DNA from: Sarea resinae
Lineage: Eukaryota
Direction of reading: 5' to 3'
Assembly (NCBI GenBank): GCA_026026165.1
Contig: JAPEUD010000039.1
Coordinates: 62,001 to 126,000, forward strand
DNA: 64,000 bases
The position numbers and the translations under genes are program-made. Below, one piece after another: positions 2,379 to 50,015 of this stretch. Every line of letters starts with the position of its first letter. The first letter of the stretch is position 1. The notes beneath the pieces were generated by a model that was given only the letters and a program-made list of their open reading frames with translations, made no database searches and was not told the DNA's origin.

Positions 2379-2609
2379 TGAGACGTTTTGTTACGTTTTG
2401 CTTTGAGACGTTCGACGATTTTTGACGGAAACTTCAAAGAGGCCGAGCTACTTCTTTACCCTCGGCACACTCCCAGCAAGATTAATGGCATGTGTCGAGG
2501 CCTTTGACGTTGGATTTTTTTGAGACGTTCGACGATTTTTGACAGAAACCCCGTGGAAGATATTGTTGATTGGGGATGAACGTTTGAGACGTTCGATTTA
2601 TACAAAAAC
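2379..2609 (+). repeat. Cluster 1 of the dispersed ~29-bp TGAGACGTTCGACG motif (copies at 2404, 2521, 2585; partial at 2379)
   Basis: 2404 TGAGACGTTCGACGATTTTTGACGGAAAC; 2521 TGAGACGTTCGACGATTTTTGACAGAAAC; 2585 TGAGACGTTCGATTTATACAAAAAC. Confidence 0.9.
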
Positions 2610-2772
2610 TCATTGGGGCTGCTTAGCGAGTCTAGCGTTGCGTCCCTGTCGGACCGCGTCTAGATAGCAGATAAGCTCCAGAATCCCCACAATCTCAATC
2701 TCACTCTACCCCACAATATCACTCCTCTCATCTACATTCCTCTTTTTGCCATCATCTCGTCCTGTTAAAGCC

Positions 2773-3627
2773 ATGGCATCCTTATTTACAGTACCAATCT
2801 CCACTGGCGGTCGCATTACTTGCACGACTCCAGTTCCTCGAGTCTATCTCCTCACCTTCAACTCCCAACCTGACAATCGGCTGAAATCAGACTTTTGCAA
2901 CGCTTTTTACCTCGCGCTAGACATCATAGAACATAAACACCCGAAAGGCGTTGTTGTAACCACGTCCGGCATACAAAAGTTCTATTCCAACGGCCTAGAT
3001 CTGGATCATGCCAATGCGACACCTGGATTCTGGAAGGATGTTCTGTTCCGTCTCTGGCACAGGATCTTGACGTGAGTGATAGAGACTACTGAATCTCAGT
3101 ATTAAACATTATATGCCAGATACCCAATGCCAACCGTCGCGTTGATAAATGGCCATGCTTTCGCCGGGGGCTTCATGCTCGCGATGATGCACGACTACCG
3201 CATCCAGAACCCACATCGAGGCTATCTCTGTCTCAACGAGCTAGCTCTTGGTGTTCCGCTTAAAGCTCCGATGTCATCCATATTTCGGCAGAAAGTGCCC
3301 TCGCCCCAGACGTATCGGACGCTTGTGCTCGAAGCCAAGCGATTCACAGCACTAGAGGCACTCAAAGAGGGCATCGTGGACAGCCTCGGCGGTCTCGACG
3401 AGGTGCTCACTTTCATCGACGAGATGAAGCTGGTAAACATGGGGGGTACGGGCGTGTACGGGAAGCTCAAGGCCGAGATGTGGAGGGAGACTGTGCAATA
3501 TCTCCGAGACCCCGATGAGCAGGAACGGAAGTGGGATGAGATGCTTTTACGGGACGAAACGCGGAAGGGGGAGAGTCTGAAGAGAGTGGCCGAATGGGAG
3601 AAGGGCGAGGCGAAAGCGAAATTGTGA
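2773..3627 (+). CDS. Enoyl-CoA hydratase/isomerase (crotonase) family protein, Delta3,Delta2-enoyl-CoA isomerase-like; C-terminal AKL suggests peroxisomal PTS1
   Basis: Exons 2773-3071 and 3120-3627 (GTGAGT...CAG intron, frame preserved). Motifs KFYSNGLDL and YPMPTVALINGHAFAGGFMLAMMHDYR. The protein ends in -AKL. Confidence 0.9.
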
Positions 3628-4004
3628 ATCATTGAGCAAGGCATTGCATTGGAGTTCCGGGGTTTTTCCTGCTCCTTGGAGAGCTATCTCAGGATCGTGA
3701 TGTACAGAATAGAATCACAGGACCAAATTGCAAAGACGAAGGGATGCTCATCTTACTGTCTGTCATGCGAAAGCCAACGTAACCGCCATACTTGCAGGTA
3801 ACGAGAGGCCAAATAAAGCATCGCCAGTGGCACATGCAGAAGGGAATTCTCGAGATATAATGATTGGCAGGCCAATAAGCGATACCTTTCACGATCACTA
3901 TAGAGCTATTCCCTGTTCCCGCTGTTTACATATTATGAGAGGAGTGATGATGGTGGAGCTGTGATATAATTGACTGTCTATTGTGCCCTCATCGCTATTT
4001 CATC

Positions 4005-4376
4005 TGAGACGTTCGACGGAAATTGTCAAAAAGTACACCTTCAGGATACATGGCAACCTTGAGAGGCTCAACGGTCCTTGGTCAAAATTGGAAACTACCG
4101 AGCGTCTCAATGTCAAGAAGGCGCGCTCCAGGCATGTCTAGCATGAGACGTTTAACGATTCTGGGACAAAACTCGCCGTGTGCGCGCCTGCAAAACTGAG
4201 ACGTTCGACGAATTTTGACGGTAAACAAACTGCTTCATCACGTGCGACCATCGATCTCTTTCTTCCCTTTTTGTCTCAGATCCGGACAAGGCGTGCATCA
4301 ATCTGAAAAGCATCCATGGACCAATTGTTTGAAGATTAAAATGAGGTAGAGACGTTCGACGATGAATGCCGAATTG
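4005..4376 (+). repeat. Cluster 2 of the dispersed ~29-bp motif (copies at 4005, 4144, 4197, 4348; degenerate at 4060; weak inverted copy ending 4109)
   Basis: 4005 TGAGACGTTCGACGGAAATTGTCAAAAAG; 4144 TGAGACGTTTAACGATTCTGGGACAAAAC; 4197 TGAGACGTTCGACGAATTTTGACGGTAAAC; 4348 AGAGACGTTCGACGATGAATG. Confidence 0.9.
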
Positions 4377-4791
4377 AAGTTGAGATGACGTCTCGTATCG
4401 GTATCTCCACCTCTCTGCTTTATCTGATCGGCGCCTTTTGATTCGCTACGAGCCTGCGCCCTAAGCTCCCTGAGCTCCCCGAATAAACGGCAAACCCCAA
4501 ATCACAACCGTCTACGACGACGAGCCGGTGTTATTGTTCATGCCATATTCACGCTCAATCCCTTCTGTGGATGTATAATACCACTTGGCCTCGTCTAGTC
4601 GTCTAATCTCACCCCTCGATCCTTCCTTTTCTGCATCTTCCCTAAGCGTCTTATCGATTACCCGGTTGGATAGGGCCTGAGCTGAAAAGAAGCAGGCGTC
4701 TGCTTCGTGCGACCATATCGACAACTATTTACCTATGCACGCCGTCCTCATCAGCCCTTGAATCCGCAGAGATTTCATCACTGGTCTCAGT

Positions 4792-6914
4792 ATGACTACT
4801 CTCACTGCAGAAACGGCTCGGCTCCCAGAACATTGTGCTCACAAACTTCCGACATCATGTCGACTCACGGCAACGCCTCTCTGCTGTGCCTGTGCCGATC
4901 AGCGATCGCATTCGGCTTCATATCCGACATACATTGACGGAGTGGGCTTTGTCTTGAGTGGCACGAGATGGCAGAGATACTGTTGGATGTGTAAACGTAC
5001 GCTGGCCATGGTTGACGTGATGACAGCCCAAGCTGATGAATGCTACAGAATTCTGGGAGGCTAGGGTCGCGGCCTGTGATCCTCCTCTTCGACCTGCGCA
5101 GACACGTATACCCGACCATCCCGATCAATCAGAGTTTCTCGAACGATGGTATGATTATCATCGTGGCTATCGAATCGTCGTTCATGACGATGGCTCCGAG
5201 ACTAGGGTTCCAATGCTCGGAGAGCCCTTGAAAGATACTACACCAGGACAGCTACCGAGAGATTTAGATGAAATGCGGAGGAGCAGGCACACAGAAGAGG
5301 AAGCTATACCGCTGACCCTCGATTCCGATCCCAACAGAGGGACCGAAGAAGGTCAGACTGGCGTTATTCGATCTAGTGAGCCTGAGCCTGAGCCCGAGAC
5401 GGTAAATCCAGAGAGACCGCGGGACGAAATATCTGCGCTCCTCAATTATAGAAGCCCCGTTTCGAACACGATTTTGGCGGACCAGACAATGCGGACAGAG
5501 TATCAAGCTCGCCGAGTGGCTACCTTACGGAGAGAACTGCAGCGCATGAGGGGAGGCATTGAGCGTGTAATGACCGGCCTTCGTGAGCTCGGAGAGGAAA
5601 TCCCAGAAACTGGTAATCTCATCAGACTTCCATGGCCTCAGAATGATCGTGCTCGACTCGGACGAAGCGGCACAGGACAGGATGCTCTGAACAGACTTGA
5701 GTTGCCATATCGAGCATTTCGCGGAACTCCTGAGCATGACTCGGAGTCCAACCCCAACAGCATTATGGCTGCCATACAACAGCGTCTGAGCGAAGCCGTG
5801 GCGAATCTCGACCGATGCCGCAGAGACAGAGAACGAGCCGCCGATGAACTGGAAGCCTCGGAGGGCCACGTCCAGGCCGCTAGGGAACGAGTCCGGCGAA
5901 TCGAACGTGAGAGGCGCACTGCCGAGAATTACTCGCAGGTCTTTGGCACCAGAGAAGAAATCGAGCGGCAAGGCGCTGACTACGAGAGTCCAATCGGAGG
6001 AATGTTCAACCGAGCATGGGGCAGGTATAGAGAGCGAGAAGAAGCCAGGCGAAGAGAGCAGATTCTGCGAGACGTCTTGGCCGCAGAAGAGCGGATCATG
6101 GAGGATACCAACCACGAATTTGACGGGACGGAGATTCGCCAGCCTCCTGAGCGTGGAGCACTTCTGGATAGGGAAGAACAGGCATTGACGGAATACTACG
6201 CCGGTCTGAGGGATCAGGGCTGGGCTCAATCTTCAGATCGTCAATCAGATCGACTCCCTCGACCAACGCTGCCAGAACGGCCGGGCGACGACGGCAGCGG
6301 CAACGACAATTCAACATCGGATGCCGACATCGATGAAGCCAACCGCTCCATGCAACTTGAAGTACCCTTGGAAACGCCCATGCACGACTCAATGACGCCG
6401 CCGCCGCCGCCAATCGGCTCCGGCCTAGGACCCGACTCCACCCGCCTGAACCGGATCCGCGTTCAAGGCCAACGAATGTCACGTCTGATTTCGATGCTTC
6501 AAAACACTCCTCGCGCCCTCGCCCTCAACGATCAAGACCCTTCCTCTTCATCTTTTCGCGAGCCGCCTAGCGCGGCGGATATGGACGTCCCAGGTCGTGG
6601 TCTCGACAATGCTGACGACGACCGCCCTCCCCCGAAAGACGATGCCGAGATGAATGTCAGTCTCGAGTGTAAGGTTTGCTATACCCAGATGGCAGATACG
6701 GCGGTATTACCGTGTGGACATCTGGTCATGTGTCGTTGGTGTGCGGAGGTGCATGTTGGGCCTACTCTTTCACATGATCGGACGCGGCCTAGGGGGGCGG
6801 CAAATTGTCCTGTCTGTAGGCGGAGGGTCAAGCAGAAGGTATGATCTGTGCTTTCAGGGCCGAAGCACTTTGCTGATCTCTTTGACGACATAGGTCCGCA
6901 TTTACCGCGGATGA
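4792..6914 (+). CDS. C3HC4 RING finger protein (putative E3 ligase) with N-terminal Cys/His cluster and central coiled coil
   Basis: Exons 4792-4996, 5049-6838 and 6894-6914 are joined by GT-AG introns in consistent phase. C-terminal RING reads CKVC...LPCGHLVMCRWC...CPVCR, ending VRIYRG*. Confidence 0.85.
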
Positions 6915-8022: not shown

Positions 8023-8223
8023 AAAGTTGTTCCGTAGCACACGGTCGCGGGTGGGACTTCTTATTTCATCATCGCAACTCCCGCAAATCACCAAAATAAT
8101 CCCACACATCGGGACATCACGCCCCAGAACCCACAACATTCTATTCGTTCCCGCTCGATCCCTGTACTATAGAGCTCAAATTATTCTCGAATCGTCAGCC
8201 GTTATGTCCAGATCTCCAGCGCA

Positions 8224-19960: not shown

Positions 19961-22900
19961 GTTAGAGTGGAAACCAAGATGACCACGAAATCGCTGAGTC
20001 TCGTTTCAACAGCTGCCGCATATGCGCGAGATGCCTGATTGGCTCGCCAGTGGGCTCATAACCTCAATACCATGCATGCATGCAGTGGAACCATCTGAGG
20101 AAAAATGGCAAAGCAGACGACAAAGAATGGGATGGTCCCCAACAGCAAGAATGGAATACTTGGTAGTCGTCGCCGAGATGGGTAGGAAGGATAGGGTAGC
20201 TCAGCAGGCGGGGGACGGTGGTGGTGGGGACGAGATAGCAATTCCTAATGGCGGTATGAGAGCAAGTACTCATTGGTGGTGTGCCGGGGAGGGAGCGATA
20301 AGTACAGGTACGAGACAGAAGGAGGTACAAAGTACCACTACCACTGGGTCGATGACGACGCCGGGTAAGTGGGTAGGTAGGTAGCCCAGCCCAGCCCCAG
20401 TATCTTGATGATTGATATTGATGATCGGGCAGCTTGATGGATGACGGTGCAAGAGCCGCAACGGTGCAGTTTCTTATTGTCGATGAATTGAAGGACAGAC
20501 TTGGTGACGAGTCTTGCGATGGACTGCTCTAGATTAGTATGATTGTGAGGCTCTGGACTCAGTATATCAGTGGTTCAGCCTGGCTCCGGAACCTGGAAAG
20601 TAGGCAACAGGCGAACCATGCACGATGCTGGGTAGCGGAATGGAAGCGACAGACGTCTGCCTAAGGTCGCTACAGCTCCCTGACTAGGGAGAGACATCTG
20701 GAGCCCCGAGGCGGCGACGGCGCAGCAGTAGTAGCGTCGGCAGAAGGATCGATGCATCACCGTCGCTGAGGCCCCTCGACCCCCAGCCTCAGGCCTCAAC
20801 CGCTGTCCGTAGAGGGCGACTTGCTTGGAATGTGGGGTGCACTCGCGATCCAAGGTACCTCTTCGTCTGTCTTGGGGGGCCCGGTACGGTACCTGATCGA
20901 GTGTGTCCTCGCCCTCAGGCAGCCACTTCCATAACATGGCTGCTGGAGCCTGCTGGAGCCTGGAGCCTAGCCTAGAGGGGTGAGATCGATCAAAGACGGA
21001 ATTGCCCTGGTATTTGGCGTCCTTCATCCACTCACGTAACACATCCTGCACACATTTAATCTCTTTGTATTACACGGGCAGCATTGCGCACGGCCTGATC
21101 CCAGAAGGCTTCTCGTTGCCGCAGAATCTTCCTCGGGCTTTCTTCGTGGCACGAACACCAAAGCAAATTGGGTAGGTGCGGACGCATCAAGACACACCGC
21201 TGCTTCCGACGAGAATGAAAGGAAAAAGAACATGATCATCTCAAACATATCCCGTGATGTCTCGGCAACAAGATTCGATGCGCATTCATGATGAAACGGC
21301 TTTACTTATTGTCTATTGTCATGCGCATCTCTGATACTCCAAGGTCTGACTCGTCTCGTATTGATTGAGTTCGTAAAAGGAAACTCACTGCCCATCTCGC
21401 ATCTCTACCTTCTGCGCGTGATTAGACGAGTCGCGACTCACGAACGCATCGCCCCGAACTCCAAGGAATGAAAGCAGAGCGAGTCGGATGGCTCCTTCAT
21501 CTGGCAGATGCGTTTCTGTTTATCAGGCACGATGACTTGCAGAAACCTCATTCTTCATACCTGCTCTCTCATGCTGGTCTCTTGACTTTCTACTATCCGG
21601 CCTGATATGCGGTTTCTTGAGTTATGAATTGTATTCAACTAGCAACACCAACCACCTACCCAATTCTCTTTGTCTCCTTTCCCACCTAGAAGTCACAGTC
21701 ACAGAATTAGCTAGTCAGTCTTTCGCACTGAGCAAAGACGCGACGCGGGCTTTACTCCATCTCAGTACGTATGCCTGAACGCCCTGCTTACACGACACGA
21801 GTGGCTGGCTCTGCTCAGGCCGCTGGGTCGTAGGACTCTCCATCAGTCCTTCTCCGAGCTTCATAGACTCAAAGTCAAGGCTGGTAGATGACATGATGGG
21901 AGCATTGAAAGCCTCTAGCCTTTACTGTCCATACTTGCGACAACAGCTCTTCTTCCGCTGGAAGCGTCAGATCTGGAGTGATCAAGAGTGAATACGTGCT
22001 TTCGCACTACTCGCGATAGCGCCAACACGGCTCCAGTACGAGTACACGATGCTACGGTCACCGTGGAGAAAGAGCCTATCTAACCACTGTAGACGCAACG
22101 CCTCACGATTTTACGAGTAGTACTCTAGGCAACGGGCAGCGGTGAGGGACTTGCCAAGCCTTAATCCGCAGGGCAGTCTGACGATGGATCCGCGTTCGCT
22201 GGACCATTGTTGCAGCAACTAGATGGAAGATTAAGACACGCATCAGTACCCAACGTGCCCGGCGAACAAAGCCTAGAAACCCTCTGTTCGACATCGGCGA
22301 TGGAGCCGTGGGCCTTGCTGTGATGCGTGGACTGGAGGGACGCCAATTACCTCGAAAATGGCATCGCTCGAGTCATGCATCATTGGCTCCCGAGCCCCAA
22401 GGATAGTGGCCTCTTCGATAAGGTTCTCGCAGTCTCCAGCTATAAGTGGCCGACTTGCTCCTACCCCACAACTGCACCGACGCCTCACTGATTCCCTCGT
22501 ATACTCCCGTCTATGGTCCCTTGAGTAAACCACGAATCAAGGTTGATCTGATGCAGTAGGCGGCTTTCTGGAGGGAAGGCAATTAGGGAAGGCAATTAGC
22601 CTCACTTATCCCAACAGGCTGTCTCCCAATTCCATCGACTTCAGCGTGAGGTCTCCAGTGGAAAGGGTATATGCTTACCGTTAGGTCTTTCGATTCTGTA
22701 AACACCATGTAGGTTTGCACGTCGCGTTCTCCGGGGCTGATGTCGATAGCAACGTTGATGTCGCAGGCTGCCGAACAAGGTCAATCCCAACTTGTGGATA
22801 TGAGCATTTGTTTGTTATACGTAATGCAACCTTGGCTTTTGCACCGCCGTCCTCGGCAATCAGATTCGTGTTCGGCTGACGTTGATCTTCCACACTGATC

Positions 22901-24327
22901 TGTTTCATCTCACTGCGTGAGGATTCCCAACTATCTAGTCTGATTGATCAAGAGGGATCAAGATAAGTCGGATATGTTCCAAGCTCTTGTCCATTCTGTC
23001 TCTGGAGGCAGTCTTTTCTCTAAGCCTTACAAGGTCGTGATGTCACTTGTTTCGGCTTCAATGCTGACTATTACGATGTTTGATATACAGAGTGCTTGCT
23101 ATGACACATCATCACACGGCAAGTGGATGATAGTCTGACTGACTTGAAGGCTCGAATGACCTGTAATGTCCTCGAGACATTGGCAGCCTTCAGAACGACG
23201 AGGATCAGGCCTCAACTCAGGCCTGCTCGGACAGCAGTCACTCCAAATGCTTCCGCCTTCTTCCCATCAGCAAGAGGGTCAATGCTTCACTCCGCTGAGT
23301 CATATGACTTTTCAACGTAAAGCCTTTTCCGGAAGATCGCTCATAGAATTCGAGGACCGTGTCAGGTTTCGAAGAGTCATCAATGATGGCCTGCATGTCT
23401 GCGGCCGCGACGCAAACGCTGACGCAACATGACTGCGCAAATGGCGTCTCCGAGGAGATTGTTCTTCAGCGATGAGTGAGAGCCTCATTTACGGAAGAAC
23501 AAAAGGTTACGTTGATTTGGCAAGGCAGCCTTCATTAGCAGACGTCGAGTCATCGAAACAGCAAACAACCTCGCAAAAAGCCAGTTCTAGACTCTACGTC
23601 GCAAAGAGACAAAGAAGGCGACTGTTTCGATTTGCACGCCTCAAGCTAGGCGCTTTCTCATGGGATGCACACTTCAGGAGTTGATGAACCTATCCGTCAT
23701 CGGACATCGCCGAAAACGACGCCTCTTGAAGCTGGAAATTATGGATGCGCGATTTAGCGGAGTTCAAGCCGCTCATTGCCGTGATAAGGCGATCTCCGAG
23801 ACACAATCTCGAATGAACATGGCTTCATCTTATTCAAGAAACATCAGCACACCGATAGAAACAACAGCATATGGCCGTGGAGCGATGGCATTAGCGACAC
23901 GATACATCTGGTCGTGAACAAAGGTCGCCCAACAATTACAGATCGGAAAGTGCATCACGTGGCTTGCCTCATTGTCATTCGTCCAATGAATTTTGAGAAA
24001 TCATCAATCTCCAGTTTTCACCAAATATTATCTATCTTCTTGGCCTGGGCTTCCATTTGCGAGCAGAACCTACATTTGGTCAATCGAAATTCATCTTACG
24101 ACAACGGCTTTTGATAGCCTTGGAAGGTACAAGAAATGGGATCCTTCACTGAGAGAATTTAAAGCTTGATCTTCAACCCGAAAGCCGTTTAAGTTTCGCA
24201 ATTTTGCCCTCCATTCGGTATCTAGCTTTCGCAACCTTGAAGCTTTCGTCAATCCTTGCATTTTTCGAGCTTCTGCTCCTTGGGACGTCACGCTCACACC
24301 AGAGTATAGTTACCGATTGATATTTTC

Positions 24328-25470
24328 ATGGCTCCAAGGCTAGGATCTCATAGGTCCTCGGATGGAGGAATAATTCGCCATGACTTGCGGAAGAGTCTAA
24401 GCCTGGGCCTGTACTCCAAAAAGGGGATCATGGTGGAGGCAATATTGCAGGACCCTCCCATTTGGCGCCTGGAGAAGAAATACTGCAAGGCTCTCATCCC
24501 TGCAATGCCTTCATAGTCTAGGTCTATCGTGGTACATGGTGCAAACCTCTGAGCCATACAGCTCGTCGAAGTTCTGAGAGCGCGAAAAGACACCATGCAA
24601 TTGAGCAAGCTGGAGAAGGCAACCAAGCCAAAGCCCCTTTCTGAATCAAAATTTTTTCTGAAGATCGGTAGAATTCATGATATGGGGTGGCGAGTGTATT
24701 TTCATGATTGGGCATGTGATAAGAGTTGCACGAATGCCGATCGTCGAACTTGCTGTGATTATTCTTTAACTGGTTCTTCATGGTGGCTATCAGGACCTGA
24801 CGCAGAGAGGACGTCAAGGTTACAACATCCTACAGACTGGTAGAGTTCGTAACCAGACTTGACGTTCGAGGAATTGCAGTATGCAGCGTGTAAAGAGACA
24901 TTAATTTGGCAAGTATCCCTGGTGTAGCATAGGAAGGCTGAGGCCTATGAGATCCGAAGTGTGGGACGCCCTGCACACTGTGCAACACCCTGACAGTGGA
25001 CAAACGGGAACTCTCGCATCTCTCATGGTCTCACACTGAAGTACTGCCCGGCAAATTAAAGTCAGTATCCGCTGCCCTCCACTCCGAATTCGAAGATGGC
25101 CACATATTACGGGAAGATGATCGACGAAACATACAAGATGTCCAGCCACCGAGAAATTACACTGCCGATCTTCCACGACACGGTCGAATCAAAGGCGGTC
25201 CACCAACTATCAGTATGCCACCCAGATCCTGATGATTCTGATGAGCTCACAGAGGCAAGGGAACGCCTCATACGGGAATTTCTCCCAACATTTAAAGTCA
25301 CCCGTCGACGTTTATTCGCCTTGCATCATGCCATGGCAAACAGCGCAGACAACATTCACGTCAGGCAACTCGACCGCAGTTGGTACGTCCGATCGAGCGG
25401 ATTCTCGGGGTTGCACGCAAGCGGCAACTTCACCGTCGCTTTCGCGATTGCGGTACAGATACATGGGTAG
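24328..25470 (+). pseudogene. Possible decayed coding relic of unknown family
   Basis: ORFs 24328-24516, 24595-24843 and 25096-25470 share one reading frame interrupted by about seven stops. Segments look protein-like but I recognise no domain. Confidence 0.25.
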
Positions 25471-27936
25471 GATGCAAGTTTGCGGTGTGCTTTGGCAGCC
25501 GGCTTGCAGCTGGAGTGTACAAAGAACTGCACCGCCGCGGTGTGCACCATCAACTCCAGGCCCTTGTCCGCAAGGCATGGAGAGCTTCATTGCGCACCGA
25601 TCACGGCCACTCAATGACATTCCCAGTTGGATGGCTCAAGGGACAAGGCAGACCCAGGCTTCGGCATAAATCGATTCGGCCTCACGTTCCGTTTCCGACT
25701 CACGCGGGCGGAAGTAAAGGAATCAACAAGGGTAATAGAGACGATAGGCTGTTGCTTCCCCGTCATCTGTTGATATCATTGAATCAGATTATTTAGCTAC
25801 ATCTCTTAGGCAGACGCACTGATCTTACCCGCGGCAGTTCCCGCCAGGACGCTGTCTCACATAATCCAAGCCTGCATGACATGACATGATTGCATTGGAT
25901 TAGGTTGGTTTTCACACGGCACACGGCACCCGGCACACGGACGGCACGCGCAACACTGAATGGAAGTTCCCGCCCCCACACCTTCGACAGATTTAAGCGC
26001 GACAGTTACGAGCATAATCGCTTAACATCCCGGTGGATTGGGTAAAGGTATTGAGGTACAGCTATCGTGGCCATAGCATGGCTGCCTAGCAAGGCAGTCA
26101 GCCGCGTGAGAAGTCAGCGGTTTTGAGGTCCGGAAAGGTTCCCGATCCCACAGACAAGCCGTGGGTTTTGATCGTCCTTGAGCCGACTGCGGGGTCATCC
26201 AGGGAGCAACCCGCACGTTCTACTGCGCAGTACGTTTATTTGCTTCCACAATCACCGGTCCATTATCAATAGCACTGTCTGTGTTGCGATACAAGAGGCA
26301 ATCCAGCCATCCGCCTTTTGCTTCTAAATATAGCCATGACGCATGGCATGGCATGTAATGGAGCTACTGCATAGGCCAGCAAGGAATCCCCTACGTCGGC
26401 GTTGATGGTGATCGTGGATTATGCGTCAAGGCGCATTCAGGCAGCCTAATCCGCCTACAAAGATGTCTTACCATGATATCGAGAACATTAAAAAATCAGA
26501 GAGCCGGAAAGACCATCTCGTTTCTGAGAGCAATCAAGCTGACGGAGCCTTGGCGTTCTAGAAGACACCCTGAAATGCATTCGATTTTGAACGAAGACCA
26601 CGAGACTTGTCATTGACGCTCAAGATCGGGGTTGGGGGCCAACTCGCAAAAGCGGTATCTTACTTGGACGAGTAGTGCCGGCCGGACCCCACGGTGCCTG
26701 CCTTTTCAGCTAAGCTACCCAAATCCTAGCCACTATCGGGCGTTCTCTGCAATAATCTTTGAACAATCACCTCTAACAACAATATACCACCACCGATAGA
26801 GTCTCATCTCATCTCAAGTCTCTCTCGTAAGGCTGATTCTGCCACGTTCTTACTCGGCACAAGGTCGTGAAACTTCAATCTCACATCTCACCACACCGAA
26901 GCTCTTGTTTTCACTGGTAGTGCTATCCGAGGATGACCATCATACCATGCTCTTACCCCGCCTCCTCTGCATTACCCCAGAACGCTCATCGGCAACGCTG
27001 ACGGGCAGGGATGACTCTTCGACGCGCGCTCTAACATGGCCATGGTCGATAACCAGCAATCTGCCTTGTGCCTTCCATTCAGCCTCGTGTGTTCCAGGTA
27101 TTGCTTGATTTCAAGCTCTCGCAACACCAATCACCGCAGGCCATTTTCGGACTAATGCCCCGACGACACTCAGGCCTCTTGTATTGATTTTCCTTCTAGC
27201 AGTCAGCCAACCAGTCAGGTAGCTACCTACGGAGTCAGGAGCCCTACCAGCGTACTACCAAGGCCGAGAGTATTGCTGATCAGCCCTACCCGGCTCTAGA
27301 CAAGCACTGCGTGCAGGCGCTTTGACGGACTTGGTGCCCCGGTTATCAGGCGCTTCGAGCTCAGGGTGGAGGATATAGCCTACCAGCTCTCGCTTCTCCA
27401 GCGTCATCTTTACCCCGTCCCATAGCCCATAGATGGCCCCATCTTGACTCTCAACTCGGCGAGACACAACCGTCACTCGGGTCGGACCTCCTGCTGTCCG
27501 TGTGCTGCGCTTTTATAGCCCGTACCTGGTATTATCTGGCACATGACTCGGGTCGTGACGAGCCAGAAATGAACAGTTCAAATGAAGCCGGCCTACCTAA
27601 GAGCGTGTGAGCGTGACCTTTCTACCTTGTGCTCACTGTGACCACGTCGATCATATCAGCACTAGCCGCCTTATCTCCGTAAACTCCATCTCCGCCTTCT
27701 TGTGTGTACTACCCAGGTGGTAACTAAGCCAAAAAGTCTATCATTGGTATTGATCCCTTCTCTGCTGCACCTGATCTACGACTTCGAAACCAAGATCATT
27801 CCTTTTGTAGATGACCATGACGATGACAATGCTGTTCCCATACCACCCTCCTCTCAACCGTTCAAACGATCTTTCCCCGACCCCCAACTGCCGGCCTCAC
27901 GGACGGAATCTGGCTGAGCTCCTCCTACTGGGGGTC

Positions 27937-28050
27937 TGAGACGTTCGACGGATTTTGACGATAACTCCATCCATGTACTGTAGAGGGGACCCGTGATAGC
28001 GCGTCGGCGTCTGTCTACTCTGAGACGTTCGACGAAAATTTCACCAAAAC
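27937..28050 (+). repeat. Cluster 3 of the dispersed ~29-bp motif (copies at 27937, 28021)
   Basis: 27937 TGAGACGTTCGACGGATTTTGACGATAAC; 28021 TGAGACGTTCGACGAAAATTTCACCAAAAC. Confidence 0.9.
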
Positions 28051-28585
28051 CTCAATTAGCTAAGGTACCTTGGGTAAGGAACTCGAAGGTTGAGGGAGGA
28101 GTCCTGGCTTGCTCGCTTGCCACACCTTGGCACTTCTCACCTTCTTCGGCGAAGAGCTCTATTTCTTGATGATGTTTCTTTTCTGGATCCATGCAGGTAG
28201 ATAGGTAAGGTAAGGTAGGTAGCTACAATAAGACCTTGGCGTGAAAGATATTTGATGCCTAGAAGATTCAGCGCTACTACTGTGAAAGGGTCTCAGTAGA
28301 GGCACTTAGGTAGTAAGATAATACAGGACAATATCTATACTGTCAAAAGTTGAAACTGGCTGGCTAGCGACTGCAAAGGAACCCATGTTTGGTAATTGTT
28401 TTGTTGATCTGATGTCTCTCCATTCGTATCATTTCTCCCCTTTCTCCTTCTTTGACCTTCCTTCCCCTATTTGCCCCCTCCCCTTGTTCGCCTTCTAGAG
28501 ACACCCGTATGAGACGTTACACATATGCCACAAGAATCATGCCCGATCAATCAAAACCCAAAACTTTAGTATTCATACCTCGCAC

Positions 28586-30927: not shown

Positions 30928-30968
30928 CGCTAACTCGCTAATTCGCTAATCCGCTAATCTCCCGCTAG
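30928..30968. promoter_or_regulatory. Four CGCTAA repeats at an 8-bp period in the divergent promoter between VMS1 and the hypothetical gene
   Basis: CGCTAA at 30928, 30936, 30944 and 30952, plus CGCTAG at 30963. The regulatory role is inferred from position only. Confidence 0.35.
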
Positions 30969-38044: not shown

Positions 38045-38049
38045 GCCTT

Positions 38050-39917: not shown

Positions 39918-42900
39918 TCAGTGATGATGATGGGCGTCATCCCCATGTCTCCCCGTCAACGAAGAGCTCAGGCGGCCCTTCCTGCCAGCCAAGGAGCCAA
40001 CATCATGTTTACCTGGATCAATATCAGCACAACGACCAGTAAAAAGTGAAAGCAAAGAAAACTCACCATCACAACATGCTCGCACATTCTCCAATCGATC
40101 GGCCTCCTTCTCCTGCTGCTCAATCACCAGTCGTAAATCCTCGGCCGAATCATGGTCGACGTCCTGTACAATTCCACCGGATGTGGGATCGTAGATATTA
40201 CTTTCCACTCGGTCTACACCCATGGCGCTGTGTCTGCTGCGGCGGCTGGAGAAAGAACCCCGTAGCGACGAGCCGGGCCGAAACATGTTGCTGAGGCGCG
40301 AGATGGAGCCTTGCATGGAGCCTTGCGGCTGCTTGATGACTGTCTGGGGTGGTGCTAGCTCTGCTCGTTCGGCGGCAGCAGCTGCTGCTCTAGCCGAGGG
40401 GGTAGAGGTAGGTGGCCGGCGATTCGACAGTCGCGAGGAATTACGATTCGGTGAGGTGTTGCGAGTGTTGTGGCTGTTGTACGAGGAGCGGGAGGTGGCG
40501 CCGCCAGTGCGAGTGCGGTAGGACGAAGGATTAAACTCCTCTACGTCTTCGGCGGTGATAGTCTGACTCGGGTCGGCGGAATCCTCGACACTGGCAGCAG
40601 ACTCTTCGCCCGTCCTCAGTAGCAGATACGAAAGAGCATTGAACCACGTCTCGTGTCTTTGGCCAGTGGTAGCTGTGAACTTGACGGCTCGGCCAGGGGT
40701 GAGGATCACTAGACTCTTGCGGTGGAGACCTGGCGGCATGGGATTGTCGTCGGTCATGACGCGCACAGCTTCAATGGCCACACTTTTAGCCCTGAGCTCG
40801 GCTTTGCCCGCCGAAGAAGGATCCCGATCGCTCCAGTACAACGTTCTCGTATACGGATGGACCCAGAAATACCGTCGATGTCGATTGTCCGACATCTCGC
40901 CACGACCAGCCTTACGGGTATATTTCCAAAGATACTCGCCAATCATCGTCTGGGTGATGGCTTGAATCATACGCGGATCGGTACCACCCTCGGCAGGACC
41001 CTGAGGTATTCCAGGCATGCCAGGAGTAGCAATGTTGAAGCGCTCATCAAGTTCCGAAGCAAAAGAAGATACAGAAGAACGTCGCGTGACAGGCGATGAG
41101 ACGTCACTGCGGCCGGTGGAAAATCGTGGCCGAGGCGTAGTGCCAGCCCTCGACCCAGGGCTCTGGGAATTCTGATTATTCGGTGTCCGCGGTCGTAGAT
41201 GTGGGTGGGATTTGTAAGCGGATGCAGGCGCGAGAGGCGGTCCCATCTGACCAGCATGAGCATCTGGAGTAGATACTCGTTGAGCGGCAGCGGCGATTGC
41301 CTGTTTATGGTCGGGCGGAAGAGGCGGATGCGTTGCGCTCACAACACTTCGCACACTGTTCGCACTTCCCGGACGTCTGGGGCTTCTCGGCGGAGGCTCG
41401 TCGATGGTGATTTCACCGTCCGCTATCCTGACTTTTACACTGTTATCGGACTTTCTGTGTCTGATTACCGAGCTCGACCTTTGCCTCCCCGGGGACCCTG
41501 AGCCTGTGCTTTGGCTGTCTTCTTCGACTACGGTCGAGGTTCTCTTATTCCTATCTTTCAGCAGCATGTCAATCTGCGTAGCTGATAGCATAGTTTGCGA
41601 GCTTTGATCGACCATGGGAATCGGCTCCGGTTTGATAATCACAGGATTCTCCTTGTTGGCAGACTCTCTCAGGGCAATGTTGGATGACATATCCTTGAGA
41701 GGCATTTTCGCTTCATCCGTTTCGCTACCAAATTGCGGGAATGGCTCACTGCTGGTGTCGTCCTCGGCGATGTGATGTTGAGCTGGAGGCTTGTTCCAGC
41801 CGAACATGGACCCCAAGAATCCAGGCCTCGCATCCTCCATCTTGGGCGCTTTCGTTTCCTCTGGAATAGGAAGAGGAGTCTCTTGGACTGCGACATCACG
41901 TGTTTGCTCTTCTGGTGGAGGTGGCGCAATTGGCTCCGTCTCTTGAGTTTGGACCGAAGAAAATGTCAGTGGCGTGAGGACCTCTTCGACAGCAGGTAGC
42001 TCTGGAACTTCGACTCTCTCCGGTGCAGTGTGTTGAGATGTGATGTTGGAGAGCTGCAGATGCACCACTTCGGGTTCGGGTTCAGGCTCTGTCTCGACAA
42101 TGGGCTCGGGCTCACTCTCCGGTTCGACAGGTGCAATCGGCTCCGTGTGCTGAGCTTGAATATGTGATAGAGCAAAGGGAGCTGGGGCGGCAGGCGCTTG
42201 AGTGATTGCAGGCTCGGGCACGGGCACAGGCTCAACAGGCGATATCGGCTCCGTTTGCTGCGCTTGAACGTATGACAAGGCCAAGAGAGCGGGTGTAATG
42301 GGCGCCTCGATGGCCGGAATCTCTGGCTCAGGCTCAACGGGAGATATCGGCTCCGTATGCAGTGCTTGAATGTACGACAACGTCAAAGGAGCAGGCGGAA
42401 TGGGCGCCTCAATAACTGGAGCCTCGGGCTCAGGTTCGGCAGGGGCGATTGGTTCCGTATGCTGCGCTTGGATGTACGACAAAGCCAAGGGAGCCAGCGG
42501 AATGGGCGCCTCAATAGCCGGAATCTCTGTCTTATCCACGGAGCTCTCGTGCTGGACACCGGCATCGAGGTACTCATGGACTTCTTGCGCGGGCGTTGGA
42601 GGCTCAATGTGCTGGACACCTGCATCGAGGTATTTTCGAACTTCCTGCGGGGATGCTGGGGGCTCGACGTGTTGAACTCCTGCGTCAAGATACTCGTGTA
42701 CCTCCTGCGGCGGAGCAGGGGGCTCGACATGCTGAACACCCGCATCATGATATTCATGGACGTCCTTACTGCCGGTGTACTGGACACCTGCGTCTTGATA
42801 TTCGAAAAGGGGTTCAGGGGCTGAAGGAGTTTCTTCGCCAACTTTGGCCTCGCCAACAGTCAATGCTCTAGCTTCGGTACTAGCAGCGGCTTCAGGTGCA

Positions 42901-45284
42901 GTCAGGACTGGTAAAGGTTCTGGCGCTGGCGCATCGGTCATTGTGCTAGCATCAGTCATTTGCGCTCTTAGCGAGGGCAGAATCTCTAGATCCGCTGCGG
43001 TTGGCGGTGGAACAGAAGTGCCGCGTGCAGGGGTGGACCGTTGAGAGCTGGCCCGGCTTGGGGTGCCCTCGTATTCTGTACCTTCTTCGCTGTCCGGGGT
43101 ATTCAACTCTCCCAGCTCGGCGAATAGGCTTTGACCGGCGGGAGCACCTTGACTACCGTTACTGAGGAGGCTGGCAGGTGAATTCCTAGCACTTGTGGGG
43201 TTGCTTCCGAATAAGGTGCCCTCGCTTCCCACTCTGGATCGACGGTATGCTGCACCACGGTTGATCTTCAGGCGTAGACGTTGATGTTGTTGAACCGGTG
43301 TTTTGATCTCGTAGTCGTCATCCTCATCTGTGGACGTGGATGCCGTACTCATGTAAGAAAGTTGGTCACCCGGTTTGGCCAGCGACAGAGGGGATGTCCT
43401 ACGGGCGCGGAGCGTACCGCCTTTGACTGGACGTCCTTCTGTCTCGGTGAGGTCGTCACTGCTCTCAGGAGCGAAGCTCTCCGCTCCAGTCTCGAACGCG
43501 TCCGTCTCGGTGGCGGTGCCTTCTCTCTCATTGGCCGTCTCAAAGGCATCACTCGCCTCGTTTGCAGTCTCGAATGCGTCGCTCTGATCCGTGACAGGCC
43601 TACTCTCCGTTCCACTAGAAACGCCCAGTCTGGATGCGGCCGACCGGCTAGGGCTGTGTTGTCCGTCATGATCTTCCCAGCCAGCCTCGTCCATGAGAAT
43701 CTCACTCTTGCTATTCCTTCCTAGGCCGAGTAGATTGGGTCTACTAGGTTTCTTGAACGTATCTTGATGAGGCACCACCTTCCGTCGCTTTCCAGCGCTG
43801 CTCGGTCCTCCGAGAGAGACGTCGTTTCGCCTCAGCTCCAGCTCATCCCTGGCCTCTTGCAGCATGCGTCTCAATTCAATCTTCTCGGTCTTCTCACGGT
43901 GTATGTTACTCTTGAGGTTCTGGATCATGCGATGCGCATGATGAAGCGAGCTCTTCAATGTTTCCGACTCGAGCATGTTGTGCCTGGGAGTTCCTTTCGT
44001 TGGCGAGGCAGGAGGTGAGTGTTCCGGGGTAGTCTGATCGGCACCGAAATCCTCATCGTCGGAGATGATGTCTCTTGCCGGAGCTGCTTCTTCTTGTCGA
44101 TACCGTCCAGCCATGGCCCGCGCCAGCTCTTCATTCTGATGGTTCAGCTCTTCCACTTTGCGTTGCAGTGCACCCCGTTCGCTCTCGCCCATGGTCAGGT
44201 TTCGGCGTAGACCGGCAGCCTCGGATTCGAGGAGCTTCCGGCTCAGAGCATGGTCCTCGGCGAGTCTGGCGTTGGCCTGCTTCAACTCATCCAGCTCTTT
44301 CTGCACGGTTGTCTTTTCGGCATTCGCAGACGTCAGATTCTGGGTCAAGCGCTGCTCCCTGTCTGCGGCAACCTTGGCGGCGGCGATGAGCTCGTGCGTC
44401 TGAGTTTCGAGATTCCAATTTTCGTCCTTGTATCGCTGTTCGCTTTCGTCCAAGCTCCGGAGCCGCTGCATGAGTCCCTCCGCTTCCACTTCGAGCCGTG
44501 ACTTTTCCAGATTGACGGCTTTGAGAGCCTCATCTCTCTCCGCCAGGATGGCTTGGAGGTTGCGGACCTGCGAGAGAAGGGATGTGCTGATCTCCGTAGC
44601 AAATTCGATATCCTTGACGCGACTTGACGGCTGGTTGCGCTGCTTTCGCGAAGGGACGTTGAGCTTTGACGGTGAGTGATTTGCCTGACTGGAGAAAGTG
44701 GAGGGAGTAGACGGTTGCTGTCATGCAGATATCAGTGATCAGTCCACCGAACACTTATCAAAAGTACTCACCCTTCCATCAACGGCAAAAGGCGAACTAC
44801 TCGTGGCATCAGCACTAGCAACCCTCGACTTTGGCCCTAGGAAGGCTCTTGCACTCTCTCGACCGACTTCGTTGTATTCTTTTTCGATCTCGACCAATCT
44901 CTGGCGTAGGTCCGGTCCAATTTCCGCCTCTCCCTGCTGCCTCTCCACGTCTTTCAGCCGCTCTGAAAGTTCTCTTCGCTGCTCCACCAGCGTCGTACCG
45001 AGCTTCGAGGCATCTTGGATTCGGCGTTCGGTTTCGGCAAGATGCGCTTCTAGCGCTCTCTTGGCTTGCGACGGTGAGGTGGCGGCATTGACAGCGAAGA
45101 GCTGGGTGTCAAAAGAGGAAAACCGGTGGGGATGGTTGCTGCTGGAATGGGTCGACAGGAAGGGATCATCCAACGGTCGTGAGGTATTCGGGGTCTGGTC
45201 GAGCGGTGTGCCAGTATCGGCGCGGCCACCCAAGTCTCTGCCCATATTTCCTTCGCGCGACGTGTTGGCAGTCGAGGTGGCCAT
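39918..45284 (-). CDS. apsA: Nuclear migration cortical anchor ApsA/Num1/Mcp5 (coiled coil, internal repeats, C-terminal PH domain)
   Basis: Exons 45284-44772, 44717-40067 and 40012-39918. DIEFATEISTSLL coiled coil, PH domain ITQTMIGEYLWKYTR...HRRYFWVHPYTRTLYWS...WFNALSYL, and LENVRACCDGKHDV C-terminus. Confidence 0.92.
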
Positions 45285-46665: not shown

Positions 46666-47784
46666 ATGGAGACGGCAACATCCCCCCCAGCCATCTTCAA
46701 GAAGCGCTCAGCAAAATCCAAATCCAGCGTACGGAAACGGCCCGCGACTCCACCACCAGCTTCAGACTCCTCGTCATCATACTCGTCGTCCGAAGATGAA
46801 AGCGGCCGGCGAGTGAAACGACGAAGAAAGAACGCGGGAGTCATCGCAGCCTCTTCGTCGAAGCGAGCCGACAAACCAGACGCGAATCCCGAACTCCTCT
46901 CGACGATCAAATTCGCCGCCGACAGGTCCGCCACCATCGCCTCCACCAACGACGCAACGAAGCAATCGAACTGGTTCGACGAAGACGCCGCCCAAGGGGA
47001 AGCCGACGCCGCATCCTCGAAAGCCCTCCTCGGCACCACGCGTTCTCTCCCACAATCCACCAGCACATCCACCCCTCGCACCAACCCCACCGACAAGACC
47101 TACAAAGGCGCCGCAGCCTACACGACGCACATCCAAAAGAACGCGGACCCGCCCCACCGCAGCAAAGCGGCGCAGATCGGGCCGGTCAAGGCGCCGACCA
47201 ACATCCGCACCATCACCGTGACGGACTTTGCGCCCGACGTGTGCAAGGACTACAAGCAGACGGGCTTCTGCGGCTTCGGCGACAGCTGCAAGTTCCTGCA
47301 CGCGCGCGAGGACTACAAGCAGGGCTGGGAGCTCGACCGCGACTGGGAGATTGGCACCAAGGGCAAGAAGGTCACCGGCGGCCGCACCGTGGCGTCTGCG
47401 GCGGCCAAACGCCGAGCTGCTGGCGGCGCGGGCGCCGACGCCGATCCCGACAGTCTGGATGCCGCCGATGAAGAAGACGAGGACGCCCTCTTGGAGAAAA
47501 TCCCCTTTGCCTGCATCCTCTGCCGCAAACCCTACACGAACCCGATCGTCACCAAGTGCGGCCATTATTTCTGCGAGGCGTGCGCGCTGCAGCGCTATCG
47601 CAAGAACCCGTCGTGTGCGGCGTGTGGGGCCGGCACGGGCGGCGTATTCAACGGTGCCAAGAATCTGAAGAAGCTGTTGGAGAAGAAGAGGGAGCGGGCG
47701 AGGAAGAGGAGGGAGCAGGCTATTGCGGATGGGGAGGAGGCTAGTGAGGATGAAGAGGCCGACGATGAGGATATAGAGGAATAA
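46666..47784 (+). CDS. CWC24: Pre-mRNA splicing factor Cwc24 (CCCH + RING)
   Basis: GPVKAPTNIRTITVTDFAPDVCKDYKQTGFCGFGDSCKFLHAREDYKQGW followed by RING IPFACILC...KCGHYFCEAC...CAAC. Confidence 0.96.
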   Translation: METATSPPAIFKKRSAKSKSSVRKRPATPPPASDSSSSYSSSEDESGRRVKRRRKNAGVIAASSSKRADKPDANPELLSTIKFAADRSATIASTNDATKQSNWFDEDAAQGEADAASSKALLGTTRSLPQSTSTSTPRTNPTDKTYKGAAAYTTHIQKNADPPHRSKAAQIGPVKAPTNIRTITVTDFAPDVCKDYKQTGFCGFGDSCKFLHAREDYKQGWELDRDWEIGTKGKKVTGGRTVASAAAKRRAAGGAGADADPDSLDAADEEDEDALLEKIPFACILCRKPYTNPIVTKCGHYFCEACALQRYRKNPSCAACGAGTGGVFNGAKNLKKLLEKKRERARKRREQAIADGEEASEDEEADDEDIEE

Positions 47785-48213
47785 GAGCCAGCGGGATAGA
47801 TGAGAGACTTGATCGGGTCGAGGTCACTGTATGACTATTGATTTATTGTGATCCACGTCCAACACCGTGCGCAACGCAGAGCCATGAAACGTCTTCGCAA
47901 AGTCAGTTAGACGGCCAGACAGCCAGGGTCTAGTCTGGCCCTTAAGACGATGGCGGCGGGGCGTGGTACATGTCCCATCCAAGACGGGCCAAAATAAGCT
48001 TCAGATGAACTGGTACTGTAAAGTGTCTCACCACGAGGAATGATATCGCCCAGCCAGATCAGAATCATAGAAGACAGAATATTTACCCATGGCTCACACC
48101 AATCTAATCAAGTGTTCCATCATCCAGTCGCCTGATGCTCAACCCAAACACCTCCATGTCCACCACCAGTCTGGGCCCCTCCGCCAAGCCCAGTTCCACA
48201 CCCAAATCCTAGA

Positions 48214-49408
48214 TCAAAGCTTGCCCGCCCTTCTCAACCCCTCATAGAGCGCCCATGCCCCCAAGGCCTTCCCATCCCGTCCGCCCACCCGCCACAGTTC
48301 CTCCAGCCTACAGAGCCTCAACGTGATCTTCTCGCCCTCGTCCCTTAGGCCCGTGAGCTTGCCGCCCCATTCGGCCAGCTGGCGGCGCGGGATCCGCTTC
48401 TGATGCAAGAAGACGGGGATGAATTCGTCGGAGCCGCCAGGGGACGGGTAGATGGCTTGTTGGAGCTTCTCTTGTGCTTCTGTGGCGGCATCCTCGCTGC
48501 CAACGCTGTCACTGGGTCCGTCGTGCGAACCGGGCCCGCGGCCCGAGTTGGAGTTCGGGACGGGGTCGACAAGCGGCGAGAGAGCTAGTTCGGTCAGGTT
48601 GATGAGGTCTGATGATGGAATCTCCAGTCCTGTCTCTTCTTGTATCTCTCGCGCCGCCGCGCCCGCGAACGTGCCGCTGTCGTCTATCATGCCGGCCGGG
48701 AGCTCGGGAAAGGAGAGCGAGCCCGCTGGGATGCGCGGCTGGAGGGTCAGGAGGACATGTTTGTCGTCTTCGCAGCGCAGGGCTACGTCGTCGGGTTGGA
48801 GAATTATCTGTTTTACTCGTTGTCAAAAAGGTTGCTTTCTTCGAGGCTGGACGGATATTTCGCAGCTATAGTTTGAGCTGTACATGGGTAGTATATAACA
48901 AAAGATGGGGCTGCAGAGATTGGAAGATCTAACATACCATCAGCCCAACACTACCGCCTCTCAGGAATACACTTCCTGGAAGGCCCTCTCCCTTGTCGTT
49001 CTTGACCTCGCATCTCAATTTCACGAACCCGACTCTCTCCCCACCGCCGAAGAAATCAACGGCCTGCACCTCGATGCTTTTGAGCTTGTAAGGGGTGGTG
49101 TGGAAGGGGTGAGAGGTGTTCGTGTGCTGGAGCGAGAGAGAATGCTGCAGGGTCGCGATCCAATTCTTAAACGCCGGAAACGAGAGGAGTTGGGATTGCG
49201 AGAGTGTAGAAGGAGGGAGAGTTATGGGTATTGGCGGGCTGGAGTGGGGCAAGTCGAATGTCGTGGTGGACATTTTGGAAGCTGTGGTTGCGAAGAAGCG
49301 GGACGTGCTGGATCTTTTGCAGATGGGTATGGATCTGAAATTGTAGAGTGGAAGTTGGCGAATGGGAACGGAGATGCGGTGGCTGCGAAACGCGGAGCAG
49401 GAGAACAT
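48214..49408 (-). CDS. Nudix hydrolase (NUDT14/ADP-sugar pyrophosphatase-like)
   Basis: Two exons (intron ~48935-48809). VQAVDFFG..RVGFVKL, LPGSVFLRGGSV, Nudix box ELPAGMIDDSGTFAGAAAREIQEETGL, YPSPGGSDE and TGLRDEGEKITL. Confidence 0.88.
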
Positions 49409-49987
49409 CTAGGAGGGAGTTGAGCGCAGAGATAATACACTGATGCTACGGATGGATGCGATGGCCGGGTGCATGAATGGCAATGGCATAGAAGAGAGAG
49501 AATGGGAATGTGGATGATATGTCATTATGATCCGTGGTGTTGAACCGTTGGAGCTTCGGGATGACGTATAGTCGCGTCCGTCATAGATCTCGCTAATCTC
49601 TATCGCTATCTTCATCGTCCCGAGCAAGAGGTAAACATTCAAACGAAATCGTGGAAGCTGATTGCGGGTATAAGTAAATCCTCAAATCCTCAGATCCTCA
49701 GTCAGTCTTACATATAGCCCATGCCGATATGCAATTGCGGCATGAAACTGGGTCGATCGCAATTCTATGCCCCTTCGTTTTTCATAGTTCATTCACTGCC
49801 AATAATTGCACAACATTCTGGCCGGCCGCACCTCAAGGCTGGTGCGTCACAACCCTTATAGAGTCCCCACGGCGTCACACCCGCGAAGTTTGCGACTAAC
49901 CACTTAATTTGAAATGAGTGCTTTGTTGACTGTTTGCCCAGTCTCCTCTCTTACTTGAAGCCAAAGTCACGTATTCGTTACAATAAG

Positions 49988-50015
49988 TGAGACGTTCAAC
50001 GATCTTTGCAGAAAC
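49988..50015 (+). repeat. Single copy of the dispersed ~29-bp motif
   Basis: TGAGACGTTCAACGATCTTTGCAGAAAC. Confidence 0.75.

Follow-up and report, generated by a model that had tools for sequence, protein, structure and literature searches.

Does a short motif that recurs in the intergenic DNA of Sarea resinae represent a defined genetic element, and of what kind would this element be? We analyzed a stretch of 64 kb (the window), for which an initial annotation had reported seven exact copies of the 13-mer GAGACGTTCGACG. All seven are present where they had been placed, all on the plus strand, and none of 100 dinucleotide shuffles contained any exact match. Allowing at most two mismatches, we found 12 matches in the window, all on the plus strand, compared to 2.34 expected; 10 of them fall into four loci, while those at 16948 and 59164 lie inside long ORFs. 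The 8-mer TGAGACGT occurs on the plus strand in 12 of its 12 matches in the window (2.48 expected). A 30-nt PWM with a cut-off of at least 12 bits gave 10 matches on the plus strand of the window and 0 on the minus strand, and on shuffled DNA one match each in 3 of 20 shuffles. Using a cross-species profile and E < 0.05, nhmmer identified 10 copies in the window, which are spread over four intergenic loci and all lie on the plus strand (2404, 2521, 2585, 4005, 4144, 4197, 4348/4349, 27937, 28021 and 49988). The motif is real, non-coding and far above chance. The copies and related features of the window are:

2404..2433, plus strand: full copy of cluster 1 (core, W-rich stretch, TTGAC and AAAC); PWM 47.1 bits, E 2.7e-7
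2521..2550, plus strand: full copy of cluster 1, with 97% identity to 2404 across 31 nt; E 1.3e-7
2585..2613, plus strand: copy of cluster 1 with the core broken past 12 nt and the A-rich ..AAAAC tail retained; E 0.039
2379..2388, plus strand: fragment TGAGACGTTT, 25 bp ahead of 2404, at chance level when taken alone; E 13
4005..4033, plus strand: full copy of cluster 2 with the tail variant GGAAATTGTC; exact 13-mer, PWM, E 2.6e-6
4060..4088, plus strand: decayed copy of cluster 2 with 3 mismatches in the 14-mer; PWM 18.6 bits, E 1.3
4144..4173, plus strand: copy of cluster 2, TTTAACG variant; PWM, E 3.2e-4
4197..4226, plus strand: full copy of cluster 2; exact 13-mer, PWM, E 5.7e-6
4348..4372, plus strand: core only of cluster 2, first base A, tail lost; PWM 14.1 bits, E 2e-4
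27937..27966, plus strand: full copy of cluster 3; exact 13-mer, PWM, E 3.2e-6
28021..28049, plus strand: full copy of cluster 3, 84 bp past 27937, with a tail like those at locus L037 (see below); E 1.2e-5
27853..27882, plus strand: possible decayed copy GTTCAAACGATCTTT, like the 49988 variant, 84 bp ahead of 27937; reading by eye
49988..50017, plus strand: single copy, TTCAACG variant, between two minus-strand genes; PWM, E 1.8e-6
1..430, plus strand: 80-bp tandem repeat with three full units and a partial one, carrying the core-like TGAGGCGTCCG..

Among the near copies proposed earlier, those at 2585, 4144 and 49988 hold at E < 0.05, while the copy at 4060 reaches only E = 1.3 alone, yet stands in register within cluster 2. 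The weaker copies that had been added to this list did not stand: taken alone they are at chance level (24861, E = 5.4; 2379, E = 13; 28510, E = 19; 30849, E = 21), and only 2379 and 28510 adjoin clusters. The W-rich spacer, the TTGAC and the AAAC tail are seen in the copies as described; the 5' boundary of the motif is sharp and its 3' border fuzzy. The DNA between copies is unalignable in the window, in agreement with the claim that it is unrelated, and holds no further shared family there, although spacings of 84 bp recur between copies. An intergenic position on the plus strand had also been claimed, and no copy was found within an ORF having a Pfam match.

The motif is not confined to the window, but is multi-copy elsewhere in this genome as well. 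The core TGAGACGTTCGACG followed by an R-W-rich...RRAAAC tail is also arrayed in metagenome contigs, namely the L037 group, L063 and L102. A first metagenome pattern, consisting of the core plus NWWWTTGAC, gave 0 loci; a second one, which fixed one copy per locus only, matched at least 117 loci, at least 110 of which are single matches, mostly in G+C-rich contigs resembling prokaryotic DNA (L017, L055 and L061 were not judged within this set). Extra cores with at most one mismatch were found in 5 of the 117 listed loci (L027, L037, L054, L063 and L102), corresponding to 3 separate genomic loci, compared to 0.07 extra cores expected in the 225 kb fetched. The tails of these arrays have RRAAAC(C) in common at positions 24–30, which was not part of the scan pattern. 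Viral contigs gave 4 single matches and no arrays; ORFs called across the arrays and used to find further arrays returned one self-like match only, and neither X2 nor X3, two sequencing runs from the same study, showed coverage at 80% likeness. The mitochondrial carrier encoded at L037 has 72% identity to the Sarea resinae protein and is about equally far from the proteins of Lecanoromycetes, Xylona and Penicillium. The same comparison also shows relatives of the L037 organism at 84–93%. Judged by sequence, the host of L037 is another ascomycete, deeply diverged from Sarea at class-level distance. The copies in this other fungus form tandem units about 115–140 bp apart, and about five such units can be aligned at L037.

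In order to describe the conservation of the motif we aligned 21 copies, in which positions 2–14 are each kept in 16–21 of the 21 and 11 of these 13 positions in at least 19. When tandem units are compared pairwise at L037 and L102, identity is 86–90% in the core and 40–45% in the rest, from which it follows that sequence-specific constraint acts on the core. At L037, the two haplotypes show 2 events in the 610-bp array versus 12 in 970 bp downstream, which are too few for a statement on constraint. As the tandem units of the other fungus can still be aligned, arrays of one direction are explained by tandem duplication.

Our preferred reading, which we hold tentatively and at somewhat below even chance, is that the motif serves as the recognition site of a putative sequence-specific DNA-binding protein and is organized in homotypic arrays. 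A cis element that is read by its sequence, as had been suggested before, is what the invariance of the core points to. The binding-site reading is favoured because the core is conserved across organisms and the constraint is restricted to it, because no coding or RNA signal was found (see below), and because of the position of the arrays and their tandem origin. The 14-bp core would then be the main protein contact, and the R-W-rich stretch together with the RRAAAC tail a weaker second contact, with the sites grouped as homotypic arrays of one to five in intergenic DNA. Such arrays may arise via local tandem duplication of units of about 80–140 bp, so that most copies of one array would share their direction; in the window, too, the spacers would later have decayed while selection retained the core. 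The arrays would most likely act locally on the adjoining genes, in an enhancer/UAS-like or silencer-like manner.

Fungi are known to carry homotypic clusters of transcription factor sites between their genes, the multi-site GAL UAS being one example. The arrays described here resemble them in having several copies at variable spacing within a non-coding stretch of 200–400 bp close to gene starts, and in keeping the motif while spacers are unrelated and flanks drift; the core is kept, the spacers are diverged, and the arrays are non-coding and gene-proximal. They differ in their nearly invariant 14-bp core, which is longer than usual and holds more information than most single fungal transcription factor sites; this weakens the binding-site reading. 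It is weakened further by the neighbouring genes, which have no common theme, neither in the window (a phosphatase, a peroxisomal-type enoyl-CoA isomerase, a RING protein, a Vms1-like protein, a NUDIX protein and a Zn-ADH) nor at the other loci (a mitochondrial carrier and a small membrane protein), and by cluster 3 and the L063 array, each of which faces a convergent gene at its 3' end. A stretch of 7 kb without ORFs or Pfam matches also adjoins cluster 3. The copies of clusters 1 and 2 lie 160–1030 bp upstream of plus-strand gene starts, and 49988 is located about 580–715 bp upstream of the start of the minus-strand NUDIX gene. A distance of 280–650 bp past a stop codon, as given in the initial annotation, is roughly right, with measured distances of 304–485 bp for cluster 1, 378–721 bp for cluster 2, 537–621 bp for cluster 3 and about 310 bp for 49988.

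We also searched for coding and structural signals. A peptide repeat ETFD(D/E) was considered and rejected, as in the sole read-through frame the third codon positions vary no more than the other two; many copies run into a stop codon a few codons on, and several of those in the window do so 2–3 codons past the core. For hairpins, none of the 7 copies folded better than its shuffles (z between -0.02 and +1.73), and the tails fold inconsistently. ARAGORN found 0 tRNA genes in the window and 0 in all 9 related loci scanned. This speaks against a tRNA gene or a tRNA-derived SINE, which should show a cloverleaf or an A box plus a B box. The B box of tRNAs, GGTTCGANNCC, can also occur apart from tRNA genes and then cluster as a boundary element (TFIIIC ETC/COC sites). 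The core of the motif contains GTTCGA, the B-box centre. However, the match covers the central 6 of the 9 fixed positions of the consensus, and where the B box has a conserved C two bases on, the motif has an A.

Another possibility is that the arrays are unannotated genes for small non-coding RNAs, with the motif as promoter or 3'-end signal and the DNA between copies transcribed; parallels would be polycistronic snoRNA clusters and, in nematodes, the motif upstream of piRNA genes. We consider this quite unlikely. Arrays may run with or against the genes beside them, as independent transcription units would, the units combine conserved boxes with variable middles, and in L037 and L102 a C-box-like ATGATGA ends a hairpin 56–79 nt past each core. 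From 6 paralogous sequences of these two loci RNAalifold draws three small stems, which were not found in the window. Against such genes, just 8 of the 21 aligned copies begin their core with a D box CUGA, no terminal stems were found by eye, and the additional boxes are missing from the window clusters (no C box in cluster 1). In the window no Rfam family reached the gathering score, and searches that admitted E up to 10 brought up chance-level rows only (snoZ102_R77 with 21 bits where 40 are needed, sR7 with 16.4 where 37 are needed).

Other contigs of the same genome match the window over the ~28–36-nt motif only, with unrelated flanks. At least one other locus of this genome is identical to the 4005 copy over 28 nt including its unusual tail, which looks like copy-and-paste between loci and speaks against the binding-site reading, and at two others forward and reverse cores lie 17–40 nt apart, like inverted-repeat pairs. 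These observations, together with the sharp 5' boundary, would fit a short dispersed repeat that spreads by copy-and-paste or cut-and-paste, with MITE-like ends or solo terminal repeats and the core as a putative transposase site. MITEs and solo TIRs are likewise short, multi-copy and intergenic with one sharp end. We regard this explanation as unlikely, since 0 of 10 window copies have an inverted partner and the flanks of 11 copies viewed show no consistent target duplication (the 3' border of the unit being fuzzy). Moreover, the core is invariant over a class-level distance while the remainder of the unit differs, which is rare for transposon ends without recent transfer, and the identity of core versus spacer at L037 points to selection on the core. 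A 17-mer that was apparently common to the region upstream of cluster 3 and another locus was discarded, as window flank had been mixed into a two-read consensus.

The direction of the copies raised the question of a polarity at the chromosome level, which the initial annotation had proposed. Copies within one cluster are not independent, and so the test comprises four loci; with all four on the plus strand, p = 2 x (1/2)^4 = 0.125. At other loci of the same genome, as well as in L063 and L102, reverse-complement cores lie beside forward ones. Relative to the gene with the nearest 3' end, three of six arrays have the same and three the opposite orientation, which speaks against a transcription-polar rule. 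The motif is probably not a chromosome-wide polarity signal. These three observations also stand against a polar architectural element (fork barrier, terminator, insulator or origin) with a putative Myb-like or multi-finger reader, which we judge very unlikely although the window loci are about 22–25 kb apart and all on the plus strand. Its closest parallel would be RTS1 of Schizosaccharomyces pombe, a region of ~450 bp in which four repeated motifs bind the Myb-domain protein Rtf1 and forks are blocked from one direction only (PMC10473836). RTS1 region B/Rtf1 and the rDNA Ter/Reb1 sites share with our arrays 3–5 direct repeats packed into a few hundred intergenic bp and a long asymmetric site suiting a multi-Myb reader (PMC10473836). 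They differ in that copies of our motif are also inverted side by side and the arrays are scattered among ordinary genes; the likeness is one of architecture. In addition, the reverse complement of the core contains TCGAAC, which fits the TYGAAC core reported for GC-ACS, an origin motif from Pichia pastoris that is 20 bp long and GC-rich (PMC3945215). GC-ACS is similar in being a ~20-bp oriented, G/C-containing motif, intergenic near promoters, that needs a one-sided flank; it belongs to another subphylum and occurs as one motif per origin and not in arrays (PMC3945215). Our comparison with it spans 6 bases.

The arrays might instead be an ancient, so far undescribed element of filamentous ascomycetes that provides oriented multi-copy landing pads for a chromosome-organizing Myb-like or multi-finger protein, as a fork barrier, insulator or origin-type element, or serves as a dedicated promoter signal for a class of small RNAs, and not an ordinary gene-specific enhancer; to this reading we assign a low probability. 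Beyond model species, hardly any architectural or regulatory element of filamentous ascomycetes is, to our knowledge, defined by its sequence. The initial annotation did not recognize the motif as a described element, and our string searches of a paper library returned only matches that, by their titles and abstracts, are unrelated and primer-type. The core is arrayed and kept letter for letter between fungi of different classes, and as a string it did not turn up in the literature searched. Such a core could be used directly as bait in a DNA pull-down. Should its binding protein prove conserved, the arrays would define a new regulon, or else a new chromatin element, across a large fungal group, while a spreading repeat would be of local interest only. 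The tandem repeat at 1..430, which carries a core-like sequence in its units, is possibly a diverged array of the same motif.

Throughout the window we searched for copies of an approximately 30-nt motif composed of a near-invariant 14-nt core, a W-rich stretch, TTGAC and an AAAC tail. The seven exact occurrences of the 13-mer GAGACGTTCGACG reported in the initial annotation, all on the + strand, were confirmed with correct positions, and no match was found in any of 100 dinucleotide-preserving shuffles. Allowing at most two mismatches we observed 12 matches in the window, all on +, compared to 2.34 expected; TGAGACGT alone was likewise found on + in 12 of 12 cases (2.48 expected in the window). 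A 30-nt weight matrix gave 10 matches on the + strand and none on the - strand of the window, and nhmmer with a cross-species profile gave 10 matches at E<0.05, located in four loci:

Motif loci in the window (nhmmer, cross-species profile)
2404-2613, + strand, cluster 1
4005-4372, + strand, cluster 2
27937-28049, + strand, cluster 3
49988, + strand, single copy

The W-rich stretch, TTGAC and AAAC proved real; beyond the motif, the copies have nothing in common. Among the weaker copies proposed earlier, those at 24861 and 30849 do not exceed chance with the nhmmer profile, while those at 2379 and 28510 do lie beside clusters but are mere short fragments. Searching the window for the 14-mer with at most three mismatches yielded 18 matches on + and 2 on -, compared to about 2.4 expected per strand; 11 of the 18 are motif copies, and the seven extra ones (e.g. 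16948, 59164, 10971, 63966), several of them inside ORFs, form a small excess.

Pfam shows the window to be unremarkable fungal DNA, densely packed with genes. A phosphatase gene on the + strand ends 304-485 bp before cluster 1, and an enoyl-CoA hydratase/isomerase gene (2773-3627) starts 160-370 bp after it. Exon 2 of the latter is 100% identical to a protein that NCBI attributes to a metagenome-assembled genome of Sarea resinae; for the next relative, identity is 72%. Cluster 2 is found 378-721 bp past the stop of this gene and 660-1030 bp ahead of a + strand RING gene. This isomerase gene (0.85 kb) is thereby flanked on both sides by the two largest arrays in direct orientation (2379-2613 and 4005-4372), and its translation ends in AKL, a peroxisomal-type C-terminus. 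Cluster 3 is found 537-621 bp beyond the stop codon of a Vms1-like gene on the - strand and marks the right edge of a stretch of about 7 kb in which long ORFs and Pfam matches are absent. The 49988 copy is situated between two - strand genes: it is about 310 bp beyond the stop codon of one, encoding a zinc alcohol dehydrogenase, and upstream of the other, a NUDIX gene, by about 580-715 bp.

In the metagenome collection the strict motif pattern gave no match; a looser pattern (14-mer plus RWWWT) matched at least 117 loci. Among the 117 matches listed, 110 were single-match loci, mostly in prokaryotic-looking contigs, and at least five loci held further core copies (at most one mismatch), compared to 0.07 expected in all 225 kb. 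Three of these (L027, L037, L054) represent a single locus present in three assemblies, and L038 is a truncated fourth copy of that locus; L102 and L063 are loci of their own. The L037 array has about five tandem units, all on +, spaced roughly 115-140 bp, and begins about 280 bp beyond the stop codon of a mitochondrial carrier gene that is also on the + strand. As this carrier is only 72% identical to its Sarea resinae ortholog, and just as distant from ascomycete proteins of several other classes, the two fungi must be deeply diverged. L063 contains four forward copies and one reverse copy adjoining the 3' end of a convergent gene, and L102 two forward and one reverse. The units of L037 (1440-2050) and L102 also carry a small CATCA..TGATG stem with ATGAG(T)GA after it, a GGGAGCACTCCC-type palindrome 3-6 nt ahead of the core and tails ending in ..ATTGGGTTAGC-like sequence; two L037 haplotypes differ by a 32-bp deletion removing one stem and by one base within a core.

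We aligned 21 motif copies from the window and the other-fungus sources. Each of the positions 2-14 is conserved in 16-21 of them; in the tails, R at 15, T at 19 and RRAAAC(C) at 24-30 are common features. Among the units of L037 and L102, pairwise identity amounts to 86-90% for the core, compared to 40-45% for the remainder. The motif is real and conserved. A coding origin was rejected: in the sole read-through frame, third codon positions vary no more than first and second ones, and stop codons soon appear. The same holds for structured RNA or hairpin DNA, with seven of seven copies folding no better than shuffles and tails folding inconsistently. ATGATGA boxes in L037 and L102 units had made a box C/D snoRNA cluster tempting; of the 21 aligned copies, however, only 8 have CUGA at the core start, and the window lacks the extra boxes. 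Known RNA families gave no match at gathering score (chance-level rows only, at E up to 10), and scans for tRNAs or SINEs found none. That the arrays are units of unannotated small-RNA genes seems quite unlikely to us.

We tentatively favor the reading that the arrays are putative sites for a sequence-specific DNA-binding protein: tandem duplication would give rise to them, selection on the core would keep them, and they would act on nearby genes. The broader proposal of a protein-read cis element stands. Against such protein sites speak the unusual length of the site, the lack of a common theme among neighboring genes and the position of some arrays adjoining 3' ends. A further objection comes from X1, a sequencing run that contains the window sequence and is possibly its source, so that it is not independent. 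At least 11 X1 records aligned to window 1900-5100 and, once the contigs of the window itself and a single foreign match in coding sequence are set aside, those listed touch only motif positions (2396-2431, 2403-2433, 4002-4029 and 4196-4224). In six of seven X1 flank strings no 12-mer recurs in the window, disregarding for one of them the motif core, so these six come from other loci; the seventh partly equals cluster 3. From these motif-only matches and foreign flanks it follows that the motif is multi-copy outside the window. In two flank strings, cores in reverse complement lie within 17-40 nt of a forward one, so both relative orientations occur side by side. The 4005 copy was matched exactly over 28 nt, unusual tail included, at one other locus, and this twin resembles copy-and-paste; a short mobile repeat is a conceivable though unlikely explanation.

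The initial annotation had further claimed a chromosome-level strand polarity. Since copies inside one array are not independent, we counted polarity per locus: four of four loci on + correspond to p = 0.125. Relative to the gene with the nearest 3' end, three arrays run in the same and three in the opposite direction, and reverse copies occur in L063, L102 and at other loci of the Sarea resinae genome. Taken together, these data give no support for chromosome-level polarity, and the argument built on it is weak. Direct orientation within arrays results from tandem duplication, as whole units of L037, a young stage, can still be aligned. Compatible with such an origin, 84-bp spacings recur in the window: they separate 4060 from 4144 and 27937 from 28021, and what may be a decayed copy precedes 27937 by the same distance. 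That the arrays are a polar barrier, insulator or origin element appears improbable, although two papers offer parallels: fission-yeast RTS1 packs four repeated motifs into about 450 bp, bound by the Myb-domain protein Rtf1, and forms a polar barrier (PMC10473836), and the reverse complement of our core fits TYGAAC, the core and only compared part of the Pichia pastoris GC-rich origin motif (PMC3945215).

The motif is apparently undescribed: by titles and abstracts, the 13-mer and six sub-strings of the motif or its reverse complement matched only unrelated papers, presumably as primers, and none of six papers retrieved for the Sarea resinae genome deals with genome repeats. The B-box, the GAL UAS and piRNA motifs served as general points of comparison.

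The interval 21100-28400 (about 7 kb, G+C about 0.50), which has cluster 3 at its right edge, contains no ORF longer than 182 aa and, in 22 ORFs scanned, no Pfam match at E<=0.001 (one weak row at 0.059); an extended regulatory region, genes for non-coding RNA and decayed DNA are all conceivable. The stretch 1-430, which precedes the phosphatase gene, holds an 80-bp tandem repeat with three full units (66-83% identity), a further partial unit at about 378-430 and a core-like TGAGGCGTCCG.. in each unit on the + strand. This repeat is possibly related, in diverged form, to the motif arrays, in which case arrays would be present in three intergenic regions in a row. Inside a long - strand gene (39921-44720) with a Mcp5-type PH domain, tandem repeats that keep the frame were observed at 42113-42802, with units of 102-108 nt (four copies) and 60 nt (three to five copies).
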